This document shows positions 12,114 through 22,852 of a stretch of 50,465 nucleotides of DNA, piece by piece (position 1 is the first letter of the stretch; the number at the start of each line of letters is the position of its first letter). Both the position numbers and the translations under genes were made by a program. This stretch comes from Candidatus Bipolaricaulota bacterium. GTDB taxonomy: Bacteria; Bipolaricaulota; Bipolaricaulia; UBA7950; UBA9294. The stretch is from assembly GCA_034715975.1 (NCBI GenBank), contig JAYEFP010000031.1, forward strand, positions 1 through 50,465, written 5' to 3'. Below the pieces are notes generated by a model. It was not told where the DNA came from. It searched no databases and saw only the letters and a program-made list of their open reading frames with translations.

Positions 12114-13388
12114 ATGGCAACAGCGGTGTTGGGGATGCAGTGGGGCGACGAGGGGAAGGGGAAGATCACCCACCTGCTCGCAAAGGACGCTAAGATGGTC
12201 GTGCGGTTCAATGGTGGGCCGAACGCAGGGCACACCGTGATCGACCGTAGGGTGAAATTTGGCACGCACCAGATCCCAGCAGGTGCCTTCTATCCTGGTG
12301 TCACATCGGTCCTTGCTACTGGAATGGTCATCGACCTTGCAGTGCTGCGTGAGGAGTACGAGACGGTCGTCAAACACCTTGGCAGGAGGCCGGAACTGCT
12401 CATTGCGGAGAATGCACACCTGATTCTCCCCTATCACCGTATTCTGGAGGACTTGGAGGGGAGTGGAAAGGCAATCGGGACCACGCGGCGCGGGATTGGG
12501 CCCGCCTATCGCGATCGGGCGGCGCGCATCGGGATTCGCACGATCGATCTGCTCGATAGAACGCGCCTGGAGGAGAAACTCAGCAAGCGGTTGGATCTAT
12601 TGCGCCGTACTTGGCCACAGGCGGAATCTATCACGAGCCTTTGTGCAAGTGACCTTGGTGAGGACTTGGTCGCCTCTGCTAAGCCGTTCCTCTCGTCTAT
12701 AGGAGACGTGCCGGGAGCGATTCGGAAAGCGATGGCGCGTGGGGAAGAGGTGCTCTTTGAGGGGGCGCAGGGGGCTCTTCTCGATGTTGACTACGGCACG
12801 TATCCGTATGTTACGTCGTCCTCTACCGTCTATGCGGGCCTGCCGCATGCCGTTGGAATCGGGGCCTTGTCTGTCGAGCGTCGATTGGGAGTGACCAAGG
12901 CGTACACAACGCGCGTGGGAGGTGGGCCGTTCCCCACAGAGCTTGTCGATGATGAGGGGAGCTGGCTGCAGAATGCAGGCTCGGAGTTCGGTGTGACCAC
13001 CGGGCGGCCACGAAGGTGCGGATGGCTGGATCTCGTCGCACTGAGGCACGCGGTGCGCTTGAACGCTCCCACCGGGCTTGCCATCACCAAGCTTGATATT
13101 CTCACTGGCCTGCGCGAGATAAAGATCTGTCGCAGCTACAAGCTACACGGTCGAGAGACCACCACATTCCCTACATTGGCTGAAGATCTTGCTCTGTGTG
13201 AACCGGTCTACGAGAGTGTCGCCGGCTGGGATGATGACATCAGGAATCTGCGAGAGTACGCTGATCTGCCAGTTGCAGCGCGAGCGTATCTCGATACGAT
13301 CTCCGCTGGGCTCGATGTGCCGATCGCCCTCGTTTCCGTCGGTCCATCGTCTGAGGAGACGATCCTTACCGGCTTTGACAGGGGTTAG
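12114..13388 (+). CDS. purA: adenylosuccinate synthase
   Basis: GMQWGDEGKGK, NGGPNAGHT, TTRRGIGPAY and TTGRPRRCGW. Start moved to ATG 12114 (GGAGGG SD, immediately after the ileS stop). Confidence 0.95.
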   Translation: MATAVLGMQWGDEGKGKITHLLAKDAKMVVRFNGGPNAGHTVIDRRVKFGTHQIPAGAFYPGVTSVLATGMVIDLAVLREEYETVVKHLGRRPELLIAENAHLILPYHRILEDLEGSGKAIGTTRRGIGPAYRDRAARIGIRTIDLLDRTRLEEKLSKRLDLLRRTWPQAESITSLCASDLGEDLVASAKPFLSSIGDVPGAIRKAMARGEEVLFEGAQGALLDVDYGTYPYVTSSSTVYAGLPHAVGIGALSVERRLGVTKAYTTRVGGGPFPTELVDDEGSWLQNAGSEFGVTTGRPRRCGWLDLVALRHAVRLNAPTGLAITKLDILTGLREIKICRSYKLHGRETTTFPTLAEDLALCEPVYESVAGWDDDIRNLREYADLPVAARAYLDTISAGLDVPIALVSVGPSSEETILTGFDRG

Positions 13389-13403
13389 TGGGGCGGATAT
13401 AAT
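13375..13403 (+). promoter_or_regulatory. consensus sigma-70 promoter for rplM
   Basis: Perfect TTGACA (13375-13380, inside the purA 3' end), 17-nt spacer, perfect TATAAT (13398-13403). AAGGAG SD precedes the ATG at 13439. Confidence 0.7.
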
Positions 13404-13438
13404 TACGGTCTCAACTGGAAACTCAAGGAGTAACGATC

Positions 13439-13882
13439 ATGCAACGCACGTTTGTGGCAAAGAACGAAGAAATAGGGAAGAGCTGGGATAGGGATTGGTA
13501 CGTAGTTAATGCCGATGGCAAGCCCTTGGGACGAATGGCGAGTGAGATTGCCATAATCCTGCAGGGCAAGCACAAGCCAATCTACACTCCACACGTTGAT
13601 ACGGGAGACTACGTTGTGGTAATTAATGCCGAGAAGGTTGGCTTGAGTGGGAACAAGTGGGATCAGAAGCTCTTCCAGCGTCATACCGGCTATATAGGTG
13701 GTCTAAAGGAGATGACGTATCGTAATCTGGTTGAGCGTCGCCCAACTATGCCTGTGCGCGAGGCGGTTCGCCGTATGCTCCCCAAGAATATACTGGGCAG
13801 GCGGATGTTGCGTAAGCTTAAGGTCTACGCCGGACCCGTGCATCCGCACGAAGCTCAGGGCCCCAAGGAAATCTCCTTCTAG
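13439..13882 (+). CDS. rplM: 50S ribosomal protein L13 (uL13)
   Basis: [47 protein letters not shown] ... GMLPKN-like [11 protein letters not shown]. Confidence 0.95.
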
Positions 13883-13910
13883 CACGTTCCCGCATTCAGC
13901 CATCAGCGCT

Positions 13911-13939
13911 CAGAAGAGGAAACATGTTACTCTCTTCTG
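13911..13939 (+). terminator. weak hairpin downstream of rplM
   Basis: CAGAAGAG (13911-13918) pairs with CTCTTCTG (13932-13939). A T-rich tract follows only about 12 nt later. Confidence 0.3.
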
Positions 13940-14117
13940 TAGGTTGATGGTTGTTTTTCTTCTTTCAGATCCACGGCTGAGCGACAGCAGACATTTGTCT
14001 GCACCTCCCTAGACAAAGCAGGGGACGACTCTCGACACCGTTCCTTTCTCTCAATCACCCATCTGCGCTAGACTTCGAGCAATGAAACACGCATGCACAC
14101 GGGTGGTGGGACGAATT

Positions 14118-14747
14118 ATGTTAAGTAGAACGCGTGGCACGTTGTACGGGCTTATCATCCTCCTGGTTGTTCTGACGGCGGTTGTGCCGGTCTTCGGCCA
14201 GAGGGAGAAAGTAGGTGTCTTCGTACAGGCGGCGGTGCCAGTTCCGGCAGCACAGCTAGAGATCTTGAAGAGCTACGCCAGTCAACACTGCGCGATCATC
14301 ACAGGTTGTGGGGTTGCATCTGCGGGGGAGCTGATGTATGCGCAGCGACTTACGAACACCTACATCGGGAATAGCGTTCCCCTTGCTGGAATGCGGAAAC
14401 TGGCGCAGGCGCTTGATGCGGATCATCTAATTGTGTTTCGCATAGTACGTTGGGAGAATGCCATCTCATTCCGTCCTGAGCGTTCTCTGCTCTTCCTAGG
14501 GGCTAGCTCCTTCCTTGGCGATTCAATGAAGTTGCTCACCAGTCCACTCGGCCTTCTGATGGGCATGGACAAGATAGCAACAGTGAGCGTCTTTGTCACG
14601 GTGTTTAGCTCTTCTGGTGACATAGAGTTTACAACGACAGTTACTACGGAAGACAAGCCTCTCTTCTCGCTATTGACGGCGGACCCGACAGAGGCTGCGA
14701 AACAGGCAATCGATGAAGCGCTGTACCAGTTGGCGGTCTCGCTGTGA
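14118..14747 (+). CDS. exported or membrane-anchored hypothetical protein
   Basis: Start set at ATG 14118 (GGTGGG SD). The N-terminal hydrophobic segment is LYGLIILLVVLTAVVPVFGQ. The KVGVFV...ADHLIVFRIV pattern is reminiscent of small periplasmic lipoprotein-like folds, but I recognise no family. Confidence 0.45.
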   Translation: MLSRTRGTLYGLIILLVVLTAVVPVFGQREKVGVFVQAAVPVPAAQLEILKSYASQHCAIITGCGVASAGELMYAQRLTNTYIGNSVPLAGMRKLAQALDADHLIVFRIVRWENAISFRPERSLLFLGASSFLGDSMKLLTSPLGLLMGMDKIATVSVFVTVFSSSGDIEFTTTVTTEDKPLFSLLTADPTEAAKQAIDEALYQLAVSL

Positions 14748-14801
14748 GTTCTAGTGCGGAGGGGAGGGTAACTGACGTTACAGACTTTCAAGGAAGGTGA
14801 T

Positions 14802-14810
14802 TGGTATAAT
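14802..14810 (+). promoter_or_regulatory. extended -10 promoter (TGgTATAAT) upstream of the 14867 gene
   Basis: TGGTATAAT at 14802-14810 with no good -35. It lies 57 nt upstream of the SD-supported ATG at 14867. Confidence 0.45.
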
Positions 14811-14866
14811 GAATGTGGTGTATTCTTGCAAACTTAGCGAAAAAGATGAGCACAAAGGAGGTAGCA

Positions 14867-17095
14867 ATGAAGGTGTATAAGGTCAGCCTTTACGGCCTTG
14901 TTCTCCTCTTGGTACTCGGCACCCTCCTCTTCCCGGCGAGTGTACTTGCCCAGGAGTCAGGGTACTACACGGTTAGCCAAGGGGACAAACGGGTGCAGAT
15001 TACGCCGCTTGCCGGTCCGACTACTGCTAGTGATTACTATGATTTGACTGACAACCAGTCGAACACCGGCCTGGAAGAAACGAACACCGCGGTGTTGTTC
15101 CTGTATAGCAATACAACGACGGGCGAAGTATCACTGTTCGTTCTTCTGAGCGGTACAGGGGGAACAGCCGGGGCAACGACAATGACGCTCTCCGGTGTAC
15201 CAGCCGCAGCGGGCTTCACAGTACAGGATGACGGTACAATGGACTTCCGCGAGGTATGGGAGCTTACTCCCCCCACAGGGAATGTCTCCTGGACGTGGGA
15301 CGATGGAAAAGCTGACGGAATGGTTCTTGGACCACTCGGTAGAGAATTCGAGATGAACATGTTCCCGCAGTTCACGTCCGGAATCACGGCGGTGAAGTTC
15401 CTCTCCGGAGACCTAGCTTCTCCGCAAGAAGTGGACCTGAATCTGCTTGACGCGATCATCGTCAAGGGCACGCCGAATGAACCGCCGCAGGTGTCGTTTG
15501 GCACCTCGCCGGCCAAGGCACATATCAATGAGCCGGTCGCGTTCGATGCTAGTGCTACGTTCGATCCGGACGGATCAGTAGTTGAGTATGCGTGGGACTT
15601 CGATGGTGACGGGCTCTTCGATCAGACGACCGCTGACCCCATAGTCACTCACAGCTACATCATAGCTGGGACAAAGAGCGTAACCCTGCGGGCGACTGAT
15701 TCTGATGGAGCGACTGAGCGATTGACCATGTCTCTTGACATATCTGACCTCGCGGTCAAGGTTACGCGCACCATCTCCACGGTTGCCGCACTTCCTGGAA
15801 GCACATTTAAGGTTGTTGTCCGCATTGAGCCAGAGATGGATCTTGCCGGTGTTGGGCTAGAAGAGAATCTCCCTGTTGGCTGGAAGATAAAGCCGTTGGA
15901 GAATGCTGGTGCCGCCTTCAAGCGAGCAGCAGTACAGTGGGTATTCATTGACGAGATTAAGTCAGGAACGACCAAGGTCATCTCCTATGAAGTGACGGTT
16001 TCCGATAGCAGCCAGCTGGTCGCTACCACTATCCCTGTATGCTTCGACATCACTGGGATATTCCAGGTTCGAACACCGGGGATTGAGCTTCCTGTTGATG
16101 GCGACTCGACAATCGAGATCACTGACGCGCTTCCGCTGAAAACGGCGATCGCGCACCTCGTCCCGAGAATCGGCGAGGACAGTGAGGACACGATCGATCT
16201 GCGCTTGTCGCAGAAGATAGCGCCGAGTCAGCTGAACCGCGCGCTCGAGATGTGGCAGAACGATGAGTACGTGCCGTGGACACAAGGTGCGACCATCGAC
16301 CTGGAAGGGATAAAAGAGATCTCGGCGTACGCCTACACGTGCACGCCGGTCGATGTCGACCTTCCCGCGGTTCCGCAGGCCAATATTAACGCCGTGCGCA
16401 CAATTGCCACACCTGTACCGTGCAACAATGTGCTGTTGAACTACATTGGTAGTGACGGGAACCTCGCTGGGAACACGTTCACCGTCAAGGTAGAAATCAG
16501 CGCCGATCAGGACATGTACGGGGTCGGTCTGGCTGAGGATCTGCCGACCGGATGGAAGGTAACCCCGATTGAGAACGATGGGTTCATATACAAGCGTTCT
16601 CAGGTGGAATGGGTCTTCCCGAGCAAGATCCCGGCAGGCGCGATGAAGATCATCATCTACCAGGTTGAGGTTCCACAGACACAGCCGTTCGAGACGAACG
16701 CGAGTGATCCTTGTTACGTCAGCAGTGATGACATACAAGGGATCGTCGATTCGGCCCTTCCTTGCCAGGATACGCACGTGACGGGTGACAGCACGATCGT
16801 GATCAGCGATTCGGTCCCCGTCGTTGTCGCTATCTCGCGCTGGGATGTTGAGAATGATACGATCGACATCAACCTTTCTGACAAGATCTCTTTCCAGCAG
16901 GTGCAGCGTGCGATAGCATTCTGGCTGGAGGACGAGGTTGTCCCGCGTACTGGTGGACAGACAGTCACCTATGAAACACTGAAGACGATCATCGCCTACT
17001 GGCTGACGAACACGAATATCTGTGATTCGCTGCCCGGAGGGGTGCAGGGAGCCTGTGATGGCAGCCCCGCTTGCCTCCCATGCGGCGGCAAGTAA
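14867..17095 (+). CDS. exported modular protein: N-terminal beta-rich domain, PKD repeat, 2 x (LPxGW domain + helical WL module), Cys-rich tail
   Basis: AAGGAGG SD and ATG at 14867. Signal peptide ends ...FPASVLAQE. PKD signature is YAWDFDGDGLFD...SVTLRATDSDG. Two copies of the GVGLxExLPxGW domain are each followed by a helical module. Confidence 0.8.
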   Translation: MKVYKVSLYGLVLLLVLGTLLFPASVLAQESGYYTVSQGDKRVQITPLAGPTTASDYYDLTDNQSNTGLEETNTAVLFLYSNTTTGEVSLFVLLSGTGGTAGATTMTLSGVPAAAGFTVQDDGTMDFREVWELTPPTGNVSWTWDDGKADGMVLGPLGREFEMNMFPQFTSGITAVKFLSGDLASPQEVDLNLLDAIIVKGTPNEPPQVSFGTSPAKAHINEPVAFDASATFDPDGSVVEYAWDFDGDGLFDQTTADPIVTHSYIIAGTKSVTLRATDSDGATERLTMSLDISDLAVKVTRTISTVAALPGSTFKVVVRIEPEMDLAGVGLEENLPVGWKIKPLENAGAAFKRAAVQWVFIDEIKSGTTKVISYEVTVSDSSQLVATTIPVCFDITGIFQVRTPGIELPVDGDSTIEITDALPLKTAIAHLVPRIGEDSEDTIDLRLSQKIAPSQLNRALEMWQNDEYVPWTQGATIDLEGIKEISAYAYTCTPVDVDLPAVPQANINAVRTIATPVPCNNVLLNYIGSDGNLAGNTFTVKVEISADQDMYGVGLAEDLPTGWKVTPIENDGFIYKRSQVEWVFPSKIPAGAMKIIIYQVEVPQTQPFETNASDPCYVSSDDIQGIVDSALPCQDTHVTGDSTIVISDSVPVVVAISRWDVENDTIDINLSDKISFQQVQRAIAFWLEDEVVPRTGGQTVTYETLKTIIAYWLTNTNICDSLPGGVQGACDGSPACLPCGGK

Positions 17096-17122
17096 TTTCG
17101 TTCAAGCTTAAGGAGATGATCG

Positions 17123-19273
17123 ATGATGAGACAGAATTGTGTAGCGGCGAGGGGGAGACCCCTCGCTGTCTTCTTACTGGTGCTCGTGCTGCTCGCTCTG
17201 CCGGTCTTTGCGGATGGGACGTATCTGCAGGCACAGCAATCTATTAGTCCGCAGGAGATTTACGTAGCAGGTACAGGGTCGCCAGACACGGCGAACATGA
17301 ATCTTGTCGTGCAGGGTATGGGACATGCACGGCGGTTCCCGATTGACTGTGTGTTCGTGATCGATACATCGGCCACGGCACAACTCGCCTCGGCCAAACA
17401 GTTTGCCTTTGATCTCATGGACACGTTCTCCGAAGAGGATCGCGTTGGAGTCGTTACCTTCTCTACGATGGCTCAGCTTGCCGTCCCGCTTAGTTCAAGT
17501 CGCCTCGCGGTGAAAACGGCGATCGCTGACTTGGAGACGGGAGGAAAGTCTGCATTTGGTGACGCGTTGCAGATCGCTCGCCAGGAACTACTAGCAGATG
17601 GGCGAACGGATGCGATTCTTGTCGAGGTCCTTCTTACCGACGGACAGAATAATGCTGGACGCGATCCAAGTGGAGAGGGTGATGTAGCAAGTGAGGCGGG
17701 GATCAAGATTGTCTCCGTCGGGATCGGCTACTTGATTGACAGTAATCTACTGGAGGAGTTCTCTTCAAAGACCAACGGCCTCTTCTTCAAGCGCATAATC
17801 AGTTCCACGATTGCCAGGATAAATAGCCTGCTGACTGTCAATGCGGCAGGCGAGGACGCGATCGTAAACAAGGTCCTCCCCAGTGACATTCGCTACGTTG
17901 GGGCGACACCGTCTCCTACGCGTGTGATCTCAAATCCTGATGGGACAACGACTCTCACCTTCAACGTCGGAACGATTGGCCTTGGGGAGGAATGGAAGGC
18001 CGAGATCACGATTCAAGCGGCGTATAAGGGTGCGCTTTCAACGGATGCGGGCTCGACAGTTTCGTACGTGAGTTTCCGTGGGGTTAAGAACACAATAGAG
18101 ATTCCCAGCAATTCACTCTCTGCGATCTTGCCTCCCGCACCGCCGTCCCCACCGGTCGCCGGATTCTCCTATTTACCGGCGAGCCTTAGTACAACGGATA
18201 CCGTTGTGTTCAGCGAGGGTTCGACAGACGCTGACGGACGGGTCGTTGCTTGGGCGTGGGACTTTGGTGATGGCACGGGAAGTGACGATCAGAGCCCGCA
18301 GCACAGCTACTCGCACAGTGGGACCTATATGGTGGCGCTTGTCGTCAAGGATGATGACGGTAATACTTCGCCCGTGGCCACGCAAGAGATTGTTGTGGCA
18401 AACACTGCTCCGACGGCAGTGTTCAAGGTGACCCCAGCTGATCCGCGTATCGCGGTCTCTACGTTGTTCGATGCCAGTAGCTCGTACGACGTGGACGGGG
18501 TAATTGCCTCCTACGCCTGGGACTTCGATAATGATGGAGTATTCGATGTTGATAGCGCATCCTCCGAGGTTGAGTACATGTTTGCCGAGGCGGGAGAGGT
18601 GACGCTTACCCTTAAGGTGACAGATGATGAGGGTGCAAGCGCAATTGTGAAGAAGCCGCTTAACATACTTCCTAGCGTGAGCGCGATCAGAGAAATCGAC
18701 ACATGTCTTCCGGGTGATGAGACAATCATCGGCGGAACGGTCAAGGTGACGATAACGATCACTGCGAATACTGAGGTGCACGGTCTAACCTTACATGAGG
18801 ACATCCCAACTGGCTGGACGTTTGCCGAGGCGTACAACGCGAGTGCGACATTCCGCAAGGAGACCACGGATTGGTTGTTCATGGAAACGCTTGAGGACGG
18901 GGATACGCGAGTGATCGAGTACACGTTGACCGCTCCCTCTACGTGCAGTGAATCGGCGAAGGCAGCGCTCGGTGGTATTATCCAGAGCTCCTCGCCACGG
19001 TTATCCCGGATGATCTTCGGCGAGGACAAGGTCTCTCTTGTCCCGACACTTCCGATCAACGTTGTCATTTCGCGCTGGGACAGCGAACAGGCCAAGATCA
19101 ATCTCTGTCTGCCCGAACAGATCTCGTTCGATCAGATTCAGTATGCTGTGTCTCTGTGGCTCAGCGGTGGCTCTGTTACCCACACTGGCGACAAGGTTGT
19201 CACCCTCGATGACATCCGTGATCTGATTGCCTATTGGCTGACCGATACATCGGTGCATGATCCGCTTCCTTAA
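17123..19273 (+). CDS. exported VWA-domain protein with two PKD repeats and one LPxGW + helical WL module
   Basis: Signal peptide ...ALPVFADG. VWA has a MIDAS-like VFVIDTSAT, GGKSAFGDAL and LLTDGQNN. PKD repeats are WAWDFGDGTGSD...VVKDDDGN and YAWDFDNDGVFD...VTDDEGA. The C-terminal module is LHEDIPTGW ... ISRWD ... LIAYWLTDT. Confidence 0.85.
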   Translation: MMRQNCVAARGRPLAVFLLVLVLLALPVFADGTYLQAQQSISPQEIYVAGTGSPDTANMNLVVQGMGHARRFPIDCVFVIDTSATAQLASAKQFAFDLMDTFSEEDRVGVVTFSTMAQLAVPLSSSRLAVKTAIADLETGGKSAFGDALQIARQELLADGRTDAILVEVLLTDGQNNAGRDPSGEGDVASEAGIKIVSVGIGYLIDSNLLEEFSSKTNGLFFKRIISSTIARINSLLTVNAAGEDAIVNKVLPSDIRYVGATPSPTRVISNPDGTTTLTFNVGTIGLGEEWKAEITIQAAYKGALSTDAGSTVSYVSFRGVKNTIEIPSNSLSAILPPAPPSPPVAGFSYLPASLSTTDTVVFSEGSTDADGRVVAWAWDFGDGTGSDDQSPQHSYSHSGTYMVALVVKDDDGNTSPVATQEIVVANTAPTAVFKVTPADPRIAVSTLFDASSSYDVDGVIASYAWDFDNDGVFDVDSASSEVEYMFAEAGEVTLTLKVTDDEGASAIVKKPLNILPSVSAIREIDTCLPGDETIIGGTVKVTITITANTEVHGLTLHEDIPTGWTFAEAYNASATFRKETTDWLFMETLEDGDTRVIEYTLTAPSTCSESAKAALGGIIQSSSPRLSRMIFGEDKVSLVPTLPINVVISRWDSEQAKINLCLPEQISFDQIQYAVSLWLSGGSVTHTGDKVVTLDDIRDLIAYWLTDTSVHDPLP

Positions 19274-19321
19274 AGTGGGAGCGGATTTGCCCGATCCGAA
19301 ATATGTGATTAAGGAGGGGGA

Positions 19322-20011
19322 ATGAATAACAGGTTGAAGGTGCTCCTTGCCGTGACAGTTCTCGTTGTCACGTTGGGGCTGGTCACCCTTGCTGGAACAG
19401 CGGACTATTCCCCGGCGACGTATAACCCAGCAGTGGGAGAAGACACTGGTTTCACGGCGTGTCAGACCTGTCTTTCCTACGACGCTGCAAGCTACGATTG
19501 GGACTTCGACGGAGATGGGGTGTACGACATTTCGACGCCTGATCCGACCGTTGAACACGCGTTTTCCGAAGCCGGTTTCGTTGTTGTGATTCTGAGGGTT
19601 GATGAAGGCGGCGGTCGCTACACCACGTGTCGCAAAGGAATTCTCGTTGGAGAGACTCCTCTCTTCGCTGTACGCAACGTAACAGCGGATGCGAGCGGGT
19701 CGGTGCTGGTGGAGATCACGGTTAGCGCCTATGTTGGTGTGCGAGCGGTTGGTCTGGAGGAGACTCTGCCCATCGGTTGGCAGTGGGAGATTCTCGACGC
19801 CGCTAACGCCATTACGAAGAAGGAAGGACAGAATCTGCAGGTCCTCTGGATGAACCCGATCGAGGCCGGTGAAACGTGGACGGTTTCCTATCGTCTCTAC
19901 CCATCCATCGGGACAGGATCTCCCCTATTGGCGGGGACGGTCAGCGGCTACGACGGCGAGAATGCGCGGGTGAAGGTGTCCATCTGTGGGGACCTTGCCA
20001 TTAAGAAATAG
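19322..20011 (+). CDS. exported small protein: degenerate PKD repeat + one LPxGW domain (no helical module)
   Basis: AAGGAGGGGG SD and an N-terminal hydrophobic anchor or signal. Contains YDWDFDGDGVYD and VGLEETLPIGW...TWTVSYRLYP. Confidence 0.75.
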   Translation: MNNRLKVLLAVTVLVVTLGLVTLAGTADYSPATYNPAVGEDTGFTACQTCLSYDAASYDWDFDGDGVYDISTPDPTVEHAFSEAGFVVVILRVDEGGGRYTTCRKGILVGETPLFAVRNVTADASGSVLVEITVSAYVGVRAVGLEETLPIGWQWEILDAANAITKKEGQNLQVLWMNPIEAGETWTVSYRLYPSIGTGSPLLAGTVSGYDGENARVKVSICGDLAIKK

Positions 20012-20032
20012 CCATGCATAGAGTCATGGATG

Positions 20033-20069
20033 GACGGGCGGTCGCTATGATCGCCCGTCTTTCTTTTTC
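20033..20069 (+). terminator. intrinsic terminator of the 14.8-20.0 kb plus-strand operon
   Basis: GACGGGCGGTC / GATCGCCCGTC stem (20033-20059), then TTTCTTTTT. The hairpin loop contains the stop codon (20045-20047) of the convergent minus-strand gene. Confidence 0.7.
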
Positions 20070-20620
20070 ATCGCTTCTCGCAGGATCGCTAGCCCATCAA
20101 TTACTATCTGGTAACGTCTTGCACTCCGCGTGCTGTGCGTGTCTATCAGCTTCAACAGGACGGCAAGCAGCATGAACGTTCCCAGTCCGAGCCCAAGCGC
20201 TGTGCGGAAACCGATCTGGATGTGGATCTGCAGCGGGATGACGAGAAGAGCAAGGCCAATCACAGCAATGATTCCCATGCGGATAACATGGCGGATTGTG
20301 AATCCCTTCGTCATTTTGGCAGGGAACGAAGCGATTGACGTTTCCGTCAGTGCGAAGTCCCATGACATGACGGCGAGCACGATTGCGATTCCTGCGAGGT
20401 AGACAGACGCTCCGTAGAGGATGTTGACTACAGCTATTGCGGTTTCCGCGCCGAGGAGGATGGTTAACTCGGTCCGCTTCACACTCTTCCACAGTATGAG
20501 AAGCCACATTGCTCCGATTGCGATTGCTGCGCACCCCAAGACGATCGATCCTACACAGAAGCCAGGGAGGGCAAGGATAACAGTGGCGATTATTGCCGAT
20601 ACGAACGCTACCCGTTTCAT
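20045..20620 (-). CDS. polytopic membrane protein (about 5-6 TM), last gene of the MoxR cassette
   Basis: Start set at ATG 20620 (GGAGG SD), overlapping the DUF58 stop as ATGA. Highly hydrophobic, with no family recognised. Confidence 0.6.
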   Translation of the reverse strand: MKRVAFVSAIIATVILALPGFCVGSIVLGCAAIAIGAMWLLILWKSVKRTELTILLGAETAIAVVNILYGASVYLAGIAIVLAVMSWDFALTETSIASFPAKMTKGFTIRHVIRMGIIAVIGLALLVIPLQIHIQIGFRTALGLGLGTFMLLAVLLKLIDTHSTRSARRYQIVIDGLAILREAMKKKDGRS

Positions 20621-21927
20621 GTGATCCTCCGTCCGCGTCTTGAAAGTGTCCAGGAGAGGAGCGATGCGAGCGAATCGGCAACGTCCCACTGAACGACTTC
20701 TACACCGATGCGAGCTAGGGCATCCAGTATCAGTTTGCGGCGTAAAGTGACTATGCGCAGCGCTAGGTCGCGCGCCTCGCTCTTTGGGATCTGGTCGACC
20801 TCATAGCGCAACATATCGGGCATGATCATGATAATCTGGTAACCGTGTGCGCGCAGTACTCCGAGGACCTCCACATCGTGCTCGTCAAGCGCCCCGCTTA
20901 TCATCACAAGTTGCGACCGCGGGGGAAAGAGGCGTGTGGGGACTGCTCGCAGGTCATCGAATACTTCTTTGTCTGATGTCTCAGCGCGGGCGAGGGAGTC
21001 GAGAATCCTTGCCATCTGATCCTTGCCGTATCCGGGAAAGGTCCAATCCATGTACTCACCATAGATGAACAGGCCCACGCTGTTTCCCTGCTTGATAAAG
21101 TACTTGGCCATGCTTGCAGCGGCGCGCACAGCGTAGGTGAAAGTCTTCTCAGTACCGACGCGAGAATTGGCCCGTTCACGGGCATCGAGGAAGACAGTGA
21201 CGTCGGCGATCCTCTCCTGTTCGTATTCGTTCACGATGAGTTCCCGTGTGCGTGCGTAGGCGCGCCAGTTGATGCGGCGAATGTCATCTCCCGTGGTATA
21301 GGCATGGCAACCGAAGAAGTCGATCCCACTCCCTCCACGGTTTGCTTGTACAACCCCGGCATAGGCGCGAGTTCGCCGCGGTCGGATCTCGATGTCATCG
21401 ATAGGTTCGGCGATAGGCACGGCGAGAAACTTCGTTTCATGAGGTGCGAACTGCTGCTGTGACATCAAAGTGATCCGTTGCCACGTAGTGATATCAGCTC
21501 CCGGCAGAGTGTGCAGCCCGCGCGGAGCGCGCAGTGTGTAAGAGAAGGTGGCCATTGCGCCTTCCGCAAGGCTTACGAAGTGGGTTGTCTCCCCACTTGT
21601 TACCTCCAGGTCGCGTGGTATGTGCTCGGCGACGCCGAGCCAGGGTATCGCCGGTCCGGTATTGGCGATGATGACAGTCACATCGAGCGTTTCTCCCTCT
21701 GTTATGTGATCAACGCTGAGGTGTCTGTCTACCGTGATTTGTGGTTTCTTGGATTCACTTGTGGAGATGAGAGCGATCCCGGCATAGAGCAGGAAGGGGA
21801 TGCCAGCGGCGAGCACACGCCCGTCGCGCACGAGAACACCGGCGATCACGAGCGATATGGCGATCGCGAGAATGGCACCGATCTTTCCCGACGTGGACAA
21901 GTTAGCCCACCTTGGGCACAGGGACAA
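20617..21927 (-). CDS. DUF58-family protein (VWA-like, MoxR-associated) with N-terminal TM helices
   Basis: Signature ...TGDDIRRINWRAYARTRELIVNEYEQERIADVTVFLDA. An alternative TTG start at 21900 (AAGGTGG SD) would sit just after the MoxR stop. Confidence 0.8.
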   Translation of the reverse strand: MSLCPRWANLSTSGKIGAILAIAISLVIAGVLVRDGRVLAAGIPFLLYAGIALISTSESKKPQITVDRHLSVDHITEGETLDVTVIIANTGPAIPWLGVAEHIPRDLEVTSGETTHFVSLAEGAMATFSYTLRAPRGLHTLPGADITTWQRITLMSQQQFAPHETKFLAVPIAEPIDDIEIRPRRTRAYAGVVQANRGGSGIDFFGCHAYTTGDDIRRINWRAYARTRELIVNEYEQERIADVTVFLDARERANSRVGTEKTFTYAVRAAASMAKYFIKQGNSVGLFIYGEYMDWTFPGYGKDQMARILDSLARAETSDKEVFDDLRAVPTRLFPPRSQLVMISGALDEHDVEVLGVLRAHGYQIIMIMPDMLRYEVDQIPKSEARDLALRIVTLRRKLILDALARIGVEVVQWDVADSLASLLSWTLSRRGRRIT

Positions 21928-22852
21928 GGCGAAGGATCTTCGTCACAACATCAGCCGCGGTGATCCGCTTTGACCACAGGTCGGGGCTGAGGATCAGGCG
22001 GTGTGATAGCGCTGATCCGGCGAATGCCTTGATGTCATCAGGTAGAACGTAATCGCGTCCGGCGAGGGCTGCCTGTGCTCGGGAGAGCTTCAGTAGAGCG
22101 AGCGACCCGCGTGGGCTCGCTCCCACGTAGACATCGTTATCAGTGCGCGTCTTGCTGACGATGGAGACGATGTACTTCTCGATGTCCGGATCGACGAAAA
22201 CCTCCTCCACAGCATCACGCATCTGCATTAGTGTATCGGCGCTCGTCACTGGGGAGAGGACAATATCGTCCACCTTGCGGACACGCCGTCGCCTGAGGAT
22301 CTCCACCTCGCCCTCTGCATCGGGATAGCCTACGCAGAGGCGAACCATGAATCGATCGAGCTGTGCCTCAGGCAAGGGGAAAGTTCCTTCATACTCGATG
22401 GGATTCTGGGTGGCGATGACGATAAACGGTGATGGCAGAGGATGGGTCTCGCCATCGATTGTCACTTGCGCTTCCTGCATCGCCTCCAGCAGCGCTGACT
22501 GAGTCTTCGGTGTAGCACGGTTGATCTCGTCTGCCAGAATGATATTGGCGAATATCGGTCCGACGGTGAGTGTGAATTCCTCCGTCTCGCGATCGAAGAC
22601 GTGTGAACCAGTGATGTCGCTCGGCAGAAGGTCCGGAGTGAATTGGATGCGTTTGAAATCCATGCCGAGCACCTGGGCAAAGCTGCGGGCGATTAGTGTC
22701 TTTGCTAACCCAGGGTAGTCCTCAAATAGGATGTGCGCACCGGCAAGAATTCCCACCATTACCTGCTCCAACACGTCATCCTTGCCGACTATTGCCTTGC
22801 CTACTTCAGCGATGATCGCGCGACTCTGCGCGCCTACTTCTTTGAGATTCAT
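21902..22852 (-). CDS. MoxR-family AAA+ ATPase
   Basis: 316 aa. Walker A is EDYPGLAKTLIAR and Walker B is IILADEINRATPKTQSALLEAMQE. Also has VIATQNPIEYEGTFPLPEAQLDRF. Confidence 0.9.
   Translation of the reverse strand: MNLKEVGAQSRAIIAEVGKAIVGKDDVLEQVMVGILAGAHILFEDYPGLAKTLIARSFAQVLGMDFKRIQFTPDLLPSDITGSHVFDRETEEFTLTVGPIFANIILADEINRATPKTQSALLEAMQEAQVTIDGETHPLPSPFIVIATQNPIEYEGTFPLPEAQLDRFMVRLCVGYPDAEGEVEILRRRRVRKVDDIVLSPVTSADTLMQMRDAVEEVFVDPDIEKYIVSIVSKTRTDNDVYVGASPRGSLALLKLSRAQAALAGRDYVLPDDIKAFAGSALSHRLILSPDLWSKRITAADVVTKILRLVPVPKVG

Follow-up and report, generated by a model that had tools for sequence, protein, structure and literature searches.

The window analysed here, a stretch of 50,465 nt from a Candidatus Bipolaricaulota bacterium, contains three neighbouring genes in the same orientation on the forward strand, designated P1, P2 and P3. 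P1 (positions 14813–17095) is a 760-aa open reading frame encoding a signal peptide, an unassigned N-terminal domain, a PKD domain (PKD_4, aa 222–303, Pfam E 3e-14), two cassettes each made up of a CLIPPER-like beta-domain and a helical module, and a Cys-rich C-terminal tail. By comparison with its ortholog in locus L075, the true start of P1 is probably Met19 at position 14867. The tail (17063–17092, forward strand) reads CDGSPACLPCGGK from nt 17054, with the first three residues overlapping the end of the second helical module, and its cysteines are kept in the tails of orthologs. P2 (17123–19273, 716 aa) comprises a signal peptide, a VWA domain (Pfam E 4e-21), two PKD domains (PKD_4, E 1e-30) and a single cassette. 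Its VWA domain carries the pattern DxSxT...T...D, which reads as a near-canonical MIDAS metal-binding motif, and its C-terminus, ...HDPLP-stop, is kept in dozens of orthologs. P3 (19322–20011, 229 aa) encodes a signal peptide, a weak PKD-like domain (PKD_4, E 1e-4, sub-threshold in Pfam) and a beta-domain only; its orthologs are 226–229 aa long and all terminate directly past the last beta-strand. The signal-peptide-like N-termini suggest that all three proteins are exported.

Directly 5' of P1 lies orf221 (14082–14747, forward strand), encoding a 221-aa protein with a hydrophobic N-terminal segment that gave no match in Pfam and NCBIfam searches but is kept at the same position in 62 of 83 related loci (tblastn). 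Further upstream, a sigma-70-like promoter was found on the forward strand 5' of rplM (13375–13403); it is a consensus match only, and the sole site within 13300–20800 to agree at 12/12 positions. A possible transcription unit, rplM-orf221-P1-P2-P3, may start at this site, and directly 3' of P3 follows a terminator-like hairpin on the same strand (20032–20060; 13-bp stem then a T-run). The convergent neighbours on the reverse strand (20045–22852) encode a membrane protein (20045–20689), a DUF58 protein with a weak DUF11/BatD-like N-terminal domain (20617–21927) and a MoxR AAA+ ATPase (21902–22852).

Conservation of this layout was assessed in 44 informative loci, each from a Bipolaricaulota species and flanked by sufficient sequence. 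P1 occurs together with the beta-only P3 in all 44, and the VWA-bearing P2 is found in 33 and absent from 11. MoxR is present in 29 loci, with a MoxR/DUF58 neighbourhood in 29–31 of the 44, and the complete set of MoxR, DUF58 and VWA protein is present, in convergent orientation, in the window and in 27/44 loci; loci L001–L003 show the same convergent MoxR-DUF58-membrane protein layout past P3. An obligate link to MoxR/DUF58 was rejected, as 15 of the 44 loci (e.g. L075) have P1 and P3 but lack MoxR or DUF58, and a neighbourhood found in only 29–31 of them is thus to be regarded as context and not as an obligate part of the system.

In this context the cluster could be read as the extracytoplasmic part of a MoxR-DUF58-VWA system of the Bat type, in which MoxR and DUF58 would mature or assemble P2 and its CLIPPER-like partners. 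As in the Bat operon, a VWA protein, DUF11-like beta-domains, MoxR and DUF58 share one neighbourhood, with MoxR, DUF58 and the membrane protein located directly past P3 in an arrangement repeated in L001–L003 and in the 29–31 loci above. Furthermore, the P2 VWA domain resembles BatA (NF047508, E 4e-16, far below the cut-off), and the DUF58 protein has its weak BatD/DUF11-like domain. On the other hand, P1 and P3 persist in the 15 loci lacking MoxR/DUF58 and in the 11 lacking P2, the genes are convergent and not co-transcribed, and MoxR is presumably cytoplasmic whereas P1, P2 and P3 have signal-peptide-like N-termini. Unlike the membrane-anchored, small BatA/B, P2 is a long secreted PKD/CLIPPER protein; no BatC-type TPR protein was found, and the MoxR link is absent in a third of lineages. 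A Bat-like role is therefore conceivable, though we consider it unlikely; being a statement about the system and not about the module, it is compatible with the rigid-cassette explanation developed below.

An earlier, sequence-only reading had proposed four copies of a beta-domain marked by L-x-E-x-(L/I)-P-x-G-W, and exactly four were recovered both by motif and by HMM. The motif L.E.[LI]P.GW occurs at P1 aa 349 (nt 15857), P1 aa 573 (nt 16529), P2 aa 557 (nt 18791) and P3 aa 145 (nt 19754). The corresponding domains, all on the forward strand, were delimited to 15752–16120 (copy 1, P1, CLIPPER/DUF11-like; Pfam, HMM and BLASTP), 16379–16804 (copy 2, P1; HMM and BLASTP, DUF11 sub-threshold), 18674–19039 (copy 3, P2; Pfam and HMM, with an AlphaFold beta-sandwich) and 19655–20005 (copy 4, P3; HMM E 9e-32). 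Scanned with HMMs in all six frames, the full window yielded exactly four beta-domains and three helical modules, the only extra signal being a weak beta-like match in the neighbouring DUF58 gene. Since such a scan of the window is circular, pairwise BLASTP was run as well, giving E-values of 6e-29 to 7e-7 among the copies, and of 5e-10 to 7e-7 for the P3 copy against the other three. The strands said to follow each copy were only partly recovered: W(V/L)F is present in three of the four but replaced by VLW in P3, and only two of the four match (I/V)xYx(V/L)T exactly. Copy 4 has no helical partner, P3 stopping right past its last beta-strand, in agreement with the proposal that the third gene carries the beta-domain alone.

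The beta-domain, which the earlier reading could not place in a named family, belongs to CLIPPER/DUF11 (PF01345) as a divergent Ig-like member. Against a gathering score of 24.6 bits, PF01345 scored 29.8 bits in P1 copy 1 (aa 312–405) and 27.0 bits in the P2 copy; P1 copy 2 remained below the cut-off with 15.1 bits and the P3 copy gave no PF01345 match, yet both are homologous to the copies that pass (BLASTP E 6e-29 to 7e-7, as above). In the AlphaFold model of the P2 cassette (pLDDT 93), the beta-domain is predicted to adopt a CnaA-like Ig beta-sandwich. When compared by Foldseek, as had been suggested together with a comparison to DUF11, its best PDB match was the CLIPPER crystal structure 9ifr (E 4e-6, TM 0.63 target-normalised, 132 aligned columns), and the fold matches also included integrin thigh/calf, TRAP-beta and GH123 N-terminal domains. 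A cohesin identity was rejected, with no Cohesin Pfam match and no cohesin among the top 50 fold matches.

In common with CLIPPER, the domain has the Pfam signature with its acid-x-L-P/G-x-G motif, L-x-E-x-LPxGW representing the family's D-x-L-x-x-G signature, as well as the CnaA-like Ig sandwich and its setting, secreted surface proteins in which it is used in tandem or as a stalk, often alongside PKD domains. It differs in that two of the four window copies fall under the Pfam cut-off, in that the beta-domain is followed by a helical domain, which CLIPPER descriptions do not have, and in the residues of the isopeptide bond. In a profile alignment, an invariant Arg aligned to the 9ifr isopeptide Lys and an invariant Glu to the catalytic Asp, positions that agree within one residue of the published 9ifr numbering (PMC12617251). 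The isopeptide triad (first-strand Lys, last-strand Asn, catalytic Asp) is thus not complete, and with Arg at the Lys position the covalent cross-link cannot form. As the bond is missing from some DUF11 domains (PMC12617251), the triad does not settle CLIPPER membership.

Three helical modules had been claimed, and three were found by the HMM scan, all on the forward strand: h1 in P1 (approximately 16121–16384; HMM domain E 4e-35, BLASTP against copy 2), h2 in P1 (approximately 16805–17062; three helices, the copy modelled alone) and h3 at the P2 C-terminus (approximately 19040–19270; AlphaFold, HMM and BLASTP). Pairwise BLASTP related h1 to h2 (E 2e-16) and h2 to h3 (E 8e-24, 44% identity); h1 and h3 gave no direct BLASTP match and are linked through h2 only. 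The helix endings described as aromatic-W-L (FWL and YWL) are replaced in h1 by MWQ and AYAY. The AlphaFold model of isolated h2 (pLDDT 89.7, pTM 0.77; pLDDT >93 for residues 11–86) has helices at residues 15–20, 39–51 and 65–77, and on this prediction the module is an autonomous three-helix domain of ~75 aa that folds alone. The two tandem helices represent a true internal duplication, as had been proposed: across the helical family, repeat 1 aligned to repeat 2 with a probability of 95% (hhalign E 3e-8, 25 columns).

The helical part also proved to lie outside any named family, with no match in Pfam (2025 copy), NCBIfam (June 2026) or the PDB. Its profile gave only chance alcohol dehydrogenase matches among PDB sequences (E about 0.9), Foldseek against viral structures gave no match, and a literature search found no earlier description of the domain. 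Two candidate families were rejected. Recurrent matches to DUF3717 (PF12512) span 18–20 residues of one helix, and P0147 alone reaches the cut-off, by summed fragments only. Kinship to HdeA was suggested by the weak family match P0173, a triple HdeA/HdeB protein (Pfam E 5e-36), and the fold search returned no HdeA; P0173 is likely a false positive, or a remote resemblance at most, which calls for caution with the weakest family matches.

The duplicated helices and an acidic stretch had been taken to recall the two-helix, Ca-loop logic of dockerins. Like a dockerin, the module is ~70 aa long and mostly helical, has a duplicated loop-helix segment of ~24 aa and usually sits C-terminally in multidomain proteins that are secreted; unlike a dockerin, it has an extra N-terminal helix, and the Ca-ligand pattern is missing in the window copies. 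Neither sequence nor profile comparison related it to dockerins, and no fold similarity to them was significant: Dockerin_1 (PF00404) gave no match even at E up to 10, and hhalign against a 17-sequence dockerin alignment gave a probability of 0.1–0.2%. The best PDB fold match of the isolated helical model, and the sole PDB chain listed above noise, was an X-dockerin (5g5d_B, XDoc), with non-significant values (Foldseek E 5.4, probability 0.06, TM 0.31), although so short a query may hide a weak true similarity.

Dockerin F-hand loops carry D/N at positions 1, 3, 5 and 9 and D/E at position 12, and the two Ca-binding loops of this type are absent from the window copies. Loop 1 reads D-I-N-L-S-D-K-I-S-F-Q-Q in h2, with Gln at position 12, and N-L-C-L-P-E-Q-I-S-F-D-Q in h3; loop 2, P-x-T-G-G, is without ligand pattern and not EF-like. 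The loop before helix 2 nevertheless resembles an EF-hand pair in keeping positions 1 (D/N), 8 (Ile) and 9 (Ser/Thr), with family frequencies of 77% for Asp at position 1 and 91% for Ile at position 8. It departs from such a pair in having Gln, not Glu, at position 12 (75% of the family and all three window copies), and positions 3 and 5 are not conserved in the family. Canonical 12-residue DxNxNG..E..E loops are seen in two distant members, P0168 and P0209, which also match EF-hand_7/EF-hand_6 (PF13499/PF13405) below threshold (E 0.002–0.04, 13–19 bits vs cut-offs of 25–30), and the window copies gave no EF-hand match. Of the Ca-loop idea, the partial EF-hand pattern and the sub-threshold matches in these two members thus stand, but the full ligand set is absent.

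The helical domain is rare, with 151 clusters among 1.84 billion representative proteins. Its carriers are secreted multidomain proteins, at least one of them haloarchaeal, with N-terminal domains as diverse as VWA, malectin, beta-helix and PQQ propeller, and 94 of 174 helical matches lie within 15 residues of the C-terminus. P0132 and P0138 have four helical matches each, the cassette recurring as an internal unit as in P1, and the order of beta-domain, GDSxV and helical domain is also found in the unrelated P0150 (with a T9SS-type CHU_C domain) and P0174 (with a PQQ propeller). Among the weaker, distant matches (P0147, P0169, P0181 and P0191), helical domains come after domains of other types or stand in tandem with no beta-domain, so that capping a CLIPPER domain is not an obligatory role.

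Such architectures could suggest a retention or anchoring module that keeps P1 and P2 on a component of the envelope, for example the toga, the S-layer or a scaffold such as orf221. P1 and P2 have neither a C-terminal membrane anchor nor a recognisable sorting signal, P2 ends exactly at the module with its conserved HDPLP-stop, most family members carry the module at their C-terminus, and the varied N-terminal domains would be the working parts. Moreover, a toga bearing a hexagonal S-layer is described for a cultured Bipolaricaulota member (bioRxiv 10.1101/2025.11.21.689855). The carriers, however, differ widely in envelope (a haloarchaeon, the T9SS-type CHU_C protein, Bipolaricaulota), which makes a common envelope ligand unlikely. 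The module is internal in P0150, where the CHU_C sorting domain serves as anchor, P1 likewise has an internal copy, and the module was not found to resemble SLH, LysM or any other anchoring module known. 'PLP' or 'HDPLP-stop' was rejected as a sorting signal, since PLP also ends internal copies. Taken together, we regard anchoring as an unlikely function.

The relation between the two parts was addressed by an AlphaFold model of the 202-aa P2 cassette (pLDDT 93.3, pTM 0.83). In this model, the strand GExKVSLV is part of the sandwich and helix 1 begins four residues on, with pLDDT >90. By our estimate, a pTM of 0.83 needs an inter-domain error of ~3–4 Å, whereas free domains would give ~0.6, and the value points to a helical part that sits rigidly on its own beta-domain. 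Of the outcome that had originally been named as speaking against docking, a helical part merely packed onto its own beta-domain as a single fold with no exposed interface, the model thereby supports the first half.

This model bears directly on cohesin-dockerin-like docking in trans, in which the helical module of P1 or P2 would enter an unoccupied beta-domain face, above all that of P3, to build a multi-protein surface complex. The dockerin-like duplicated loop-helix unit, the C-terminal bias in secreted multidomain proteins, the EF-hand-like vestiges with canonical loops in P0168 and P0209, the XDoc chain as best, non-significant fold match, and the presence of P3 alongside P1 in 44/44 loci would all fit. 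Against it stand the dockerin and XDoc comparison values given above, the Gln at loop position 12 in 75% and the second loop without ligand pattern, and the CLIPPER-like nature of the adjoining beta-domain. Furthermore, P0150 has a genuine dockerin and a genuine cohesin domain besides its helical module, and every helical module already has a beta-domain of its own, in a fixed orientation in the cassette model (pTM 0.83), so that none is spare for P3. Docking in trans is therefore very unlikely. A more specific version, in which the helical module is a Ca-independent EF-hand/dockerin-like descendant docking on CLIPPER-type beta-domains, with P3 as dedicated receptor, appears highly improbable. 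If true, it would be a second type of module pairing, sequence-unrelated to cohesin-dockerin, assembling toga or S-layer complexes in a deep-branching phylum and shared with haloarchaea.

With the domain identities, the internal duplication, the autonomous folding and the gene-order conservation established, we favour, at a probability of about one half, a reading of the repeated unit as a rigid two-domain structural cassette of an exported envelope protein complex. Its first part would be the divergent CLIPPER/DUF11 Ig-like beta-sandwich, with the catalytic acid kept as the Glu of L-x-E-x-LPxGW and a buried Arg-Glu pair probably substituting for the isopeptide bond. The second would be a helical domain born from duplication of a loop-helix unit, with EF-hand vestiges and incomplete Ca ligands. 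Given the four-residue linker and the predicted fixed orientation of the two parts, the helical domain would mainly cap its own beta-domain or extend it rigidly. P2 ends with the cassette and P1 contains it twice, with P3 as a putative paralogous beta-only subunit, and the internal repetition of the cassette (P1, P0132, P0138) would fit a role as stalk or building block. The constant pairing of P1 and P3, together with the position 3' of rplM between a strong promoter-like and a terminator-like site, suggests a complex of the envelope or surface that is abundant and made constitutively, and that may be associated with the toga or S-layer; in most lineages P2 would contribute a VWA domain to it, with ligands or partner proteins as possible binding targets. 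Counting against a cap role, the C-terminal bias (94/174) is what would be expected of a docking or anchoring module, and the invariable P1–P3 pairing is equally compatible with an interaction in trans.

The beta-domain is thus of an already known kind, a CLIPPER/DUF11 variant without isopeptide bond and with Arg for Lys, and the combination of an Ig-like stalk domain with an accessory domain is a common pattern, which makes the cassette useful yet unsurprising. The new part is a small family of helical domains, confidently folded in the models, internally duplicated, rare and uncatalogued in Pfam, NCBIfam and the PDB. No protein components were assigned to the Bipolaricaulota toga or S-layer in the description of the cultured member (bioRxiv 10.1101/2025.11.21.689855). 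Defining the helical family, whether as cap, anchor or dock, would annotate hundreds of 'hypothetical' surface proteins and could point to building blocks of the Bipolaricaulota envelope.

P1 (14813-17095, 760 aa), P2 (17123-19273, 716 aa) and P3 (19322-20011, 229 aa), the three neighbouring genes encoding the beta-domain, are co-oriented on the forward strand, and the N-termini of all three products appear by eye to be hydrophobic and signal-peptide-like. The P1 ORF opens with an ATG that lies 18 codons before MKVYKVSLYGLV (14813-14866), and the true start is probably 14867, as the ortholog at locus L075 begins at the equivalent of the second Met. According to Pfam, P1 contains a PKD domain (aa 222-303) and a DUF11 domain (aa 312-405), P2 a VWA domain (aa 75-222, E 4e-21), two PKD domains (aa 343-507) and a DUF11 domain (aa 535-607), and P3 only a weak PKD-like match. 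The ~175-aa N-terminal domain of P1 (aa 47-220, about 14950-15475) found no match in Pfam or NCBIfam and is kept throughout the P1 orthologs, with 34-70% identity at the loci of the 44-locus survey. In the VWA domain of P2 (17345-17788), the MIDAS positions read D-T-S-A-T ... T ... D, close to the canonical DxSxS...T...D, which makes metal-dependent ligand binding plausible.

The sequence-only reading had described four copies of a ~110-aa beta-domain, three of them followed by a ~70-aa helical module, and this observation is confirmed. The pattern L.E.[LI]P.GW occurs exactly four times (nt 15857, 16529, 18791 and 19754), and a six-frame scan of the full 50-kb window with HMMs of both parts returned four beta-domains and three helical modules and no more, the sole further signal being a weak beta-like match inside a DUF58 gene. 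Pairwise BLASTP, independent of these HMMs, related the beta copies to each other at E 6e-29 to 7e-7 and the helical copies (h1 and h2 in P1, h3 in P2) at E 2e-16 (h1-h2) and 8e-24 (h2-h3). Two of the described motifs are only approximately general: the W(V/L)F strand after each beta copy reads VLW in P3, and h1 lacks the aromatic-W-L helix endings.

The beta-domain, which had not been placed in a named family by eye, is CLIPPER/DUF11: two copies scored 29.8 and 27.0 bits against PF01345 (Pfam gathering score 24.6), and an AlphaFold2 model of both parts in P2 (aa 515-716, 202 residues, from a 34-sequence alignment; mean pLDDT 93.3, pTM 0.83) had as its top PDB match 9ifr (E 4e-6, target-normalised TM 0.63), entitled 'CLIPPER domain from the Gram-negative fibrillar adhesin'. 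The authors of that structure renamed DUF11 CLIPPER, a CnaA-like Ig domain in the stalks of surface proteins, in which a Lys-Asn isopeptide bond, formed with Asp as catalyst, is a frequent stabiliser but is missing from some members (PMC12617251). A profile of ten beta-domains aligned with 9ifr weakly (E 2.1) yet in register, placing the invariant Arg of the first strand on the isopeptide Lys and the invariant Glu of L-x-E-x-LPxGW on the Asp of L-N-D-T-L-G-Q-G-L, which agrees with the paper's catalytic Asp-748 give or take one residue in the numbering used here. The L-x-E-x-LPxGW motif is accordingly the CLIPPER/DUF11 family signature, and the beta-domain belongs to that family as a variant without the isopeptide bond, for which the Arg-Glu pair may stand in.

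The helical part, likewise not placed by eye, indeed fits no named family: there was no Pfam match with an E-value of 10 or lower, none in NCBIfam or among PDB sequences, nothing significant in a Foldseek search of the PDB, and none in BFVD. Modelled alone, the second P1 copy was predicted to fold into a short helix 1 followed by two helices of 13 residues each (pLDDT >93 over residues 11-86, pTM 0.77). In the two-part model, helix 1 starts four residues past the last sandwich strand, the conserved G-(D/E)-x-x-V-x-(V/L), and all 10-residue blocks spanning the junction have a pLDDT of at least 92, whereas this strand is disordered in the isolated module (pLDDT 49). Free domains of 125 and 77 aa would be expected to give a pTM of about 0.6, by our estimate, compared to the observed 0.83, which over 202 residues would imply an inter-domain error of ~3-4 Å; as unconstrained domains could not reach this value, the two parts are predicted to constrain each other. 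Packing of the helical part onto its own beta-domain, considered earlier, is thus favoured to the extent of a predicted rigid pairing. In most P1 orthologs, helix 1 is preceded and helix 3 followed by a Cys (D-C-x-S-V ... N-I-C-D-P-L-P), and haloarchaeal members have an analogous pair on either side of the helical domain, suggesting a disulfide staple; in the second P1 copy of the window, Ser replaces the first Cys. The P1 C-terminus (17054-17092) is a short tail whose cysteines, spaced C-x5-C-x2-C, are conserved in a comparison that also took in orthologs P0002, P0003 and P0025-P0028.

When 1.84 billion representative proteins were searched exhaustively with the helical-module profile, only 151 matched with an E-value of 1e-3 or lower, 86 of them at 1e-10 or lower. 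Near relatives are P1- and P2-like proteins, those named being from Bipolaricaulota/Acetothermia, and far relatives share only the two-helix core (consensus x-I-S-L-x-E-I-Q-x-A-I-x-W-W-A-x-G-x-E-V-P-x-T-G-G-x-T-I-x-L-x-x-I-Q-x-L-I-x-x-W-A) and are large secreted proteins that also carry domains of the PKD, malectin, beta-helix/NosD, CARDB or PQQ-propeller type, one such protein being from a Halobacteriales archaeon. The order beta-domain, GDSxV, helical domain also occurs in unrelated carriers (e.g. P0150 and P0174), and an LPxGW-type motif lies upstream of the core (median 108 residues) in at least 88 of 147 testable matches, an undercount that misses variants such as FPETW and WPAGW. Since weaker far matches place it after other domain types or in tandem (P0147), the helical domain is autonomous, with a CLIPPER-like partner often but not always; 94 of 174 domain matches stop no more than 15 residues short of the C-terminus. 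One protein consisting of three HdeA/HdeB repeats (P0173; Pfam E 5e-36) matches the profile at E 3e-6 via a W-x-D-G-Y...T-G-x-x-V-D segment, which is either spurious or a remote resemblance of two small helical periplasmic domains.

Scanning 185,579 species genomes with patterns specific to the close family yielded 144 relatives, and 80 loci were kept, labelled mostly Bipolaricaulota or Acetothermia and otherwise 'uncultured Thermotogae', Neomarinimicrobiota, Atribacteria or 'uncultured bacterium', with identical gene order. The 'uncultured Thermotogae' title stands on many cluster-bearing public MAG records (L006, L008, L010, L011 and others), Neomarinimicrobiota and Atribacteria on one each; as the oddly labelled loci match Bipolaricaulota-labelled ones in gene order and are 65-95% identical to them, these records are probably mislabelled. 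The order rplM-orf221-P1-P2-P3, where orf221 is a 221-aa ORF (14082-14747, +), is widely conserved. Among the 44 loci with sufficient downstream sequence, P1 and P3 occur together in all 44, while 33 have a P2 with a VWA domain and 29 have MoxR; in Acetothermia bacterium 64_32, the beta-only P3 directly follows P1, and P2 and MoxR are both missing. A sigma-70-like promoter upstream of rplM (13375-13403, +; 12/12 consensus match) and a strong terminator-like hairpin right after P3 (20032-20060, +; 13-bp stem) would fit a single, highly expressed transcription unit from rplM through P3, suggesting co-transcription of surface-protein genes with a ribosomal protein gene. After rplM, the forward strand here offers no candidate for rpsI among ORFs of at least 60 aa. 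The N-terminal part of the DUF58 protein (21526-21741, within the gene at 20617-21927, -) weakly matches both the beta-domain HMM (iE 0.004) and the Pfam 'BatD DUF11 like domain' (E 0.013), so a related Ig-like domain may be encoded in the convergent MoxR-DUF58 cluster.

The duplicated helix pair proved real, the first loop-helix aligning with the second across the whole family (hhalign probability 95%, E 3e-8), and the helical module is a real, undescribed, rare and internally duplicated domain. Its duplication had been likened to that of dockerins, and its pairing with the beta-domain to a cohesin-dockerin code. The carrier P0150 has a T9SS-type CHU_C sorting domain and genuine dockerin and cohesin domains beside the helical module; against 17 dockerin sequences seeded from its Dockerin_1 domain, the helical-module profiles reached an hhalign probability of 0.1-0.2%, and the top Foldseek PDB entry, the X-dockerin chain 5g5d_B, was non-significant (E 5.4, probability 0.06, TM 0.31). 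Dockerin identity is accordingly rejected, the cohesin-dockerin reading having failed in every membership test run. Of the proposed Ca-loop logic, an EF-hand-like vestige in the first loop is left: with the loop preceding helix 2 numbered as an EF-hand loop, the family has Asp at position 1 (77%), Ile at 8 (91%) and Ser/Thr at 9 (69%), but Gln occupies position 12 in 75% and Glu in just 23%, conservation is lacking at positions 3 and 5, and no ligand pattern was found in the second loop (P-x-T-G-G). Canonical D-x-N-x-N-G/N-x-L-E-x-x-E loops are present in two far members, P0168 and P0209, along with sub-threshold EF-hand_7 and EF-hand_6 matches (E 0.002-0.04). The loop pattern is read as a vestige of EF-hand-like ancestry and not as evidence for Ca binding or dockerin identity of the window copies.

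Docking of the helical module in trans, or a receptor role for P3, would accord with the invariable pairing of P1 and P3, but the predicted rigid pairing of both parts within one chain further weakens the cohesin-dockerin reading, and we regard such docking as quite improbable. Most likely, the cassette serves as a rigid structural unit within an exported envelope complex. A toga-like outer sheath with a hexagonal S-layer is reported for the phylum's first cultured member (preprint, bioRxiv 10.1101/2025.11.21.689855), and a place for P1 and P3 among the envelope components is offered purely as a suggestion.
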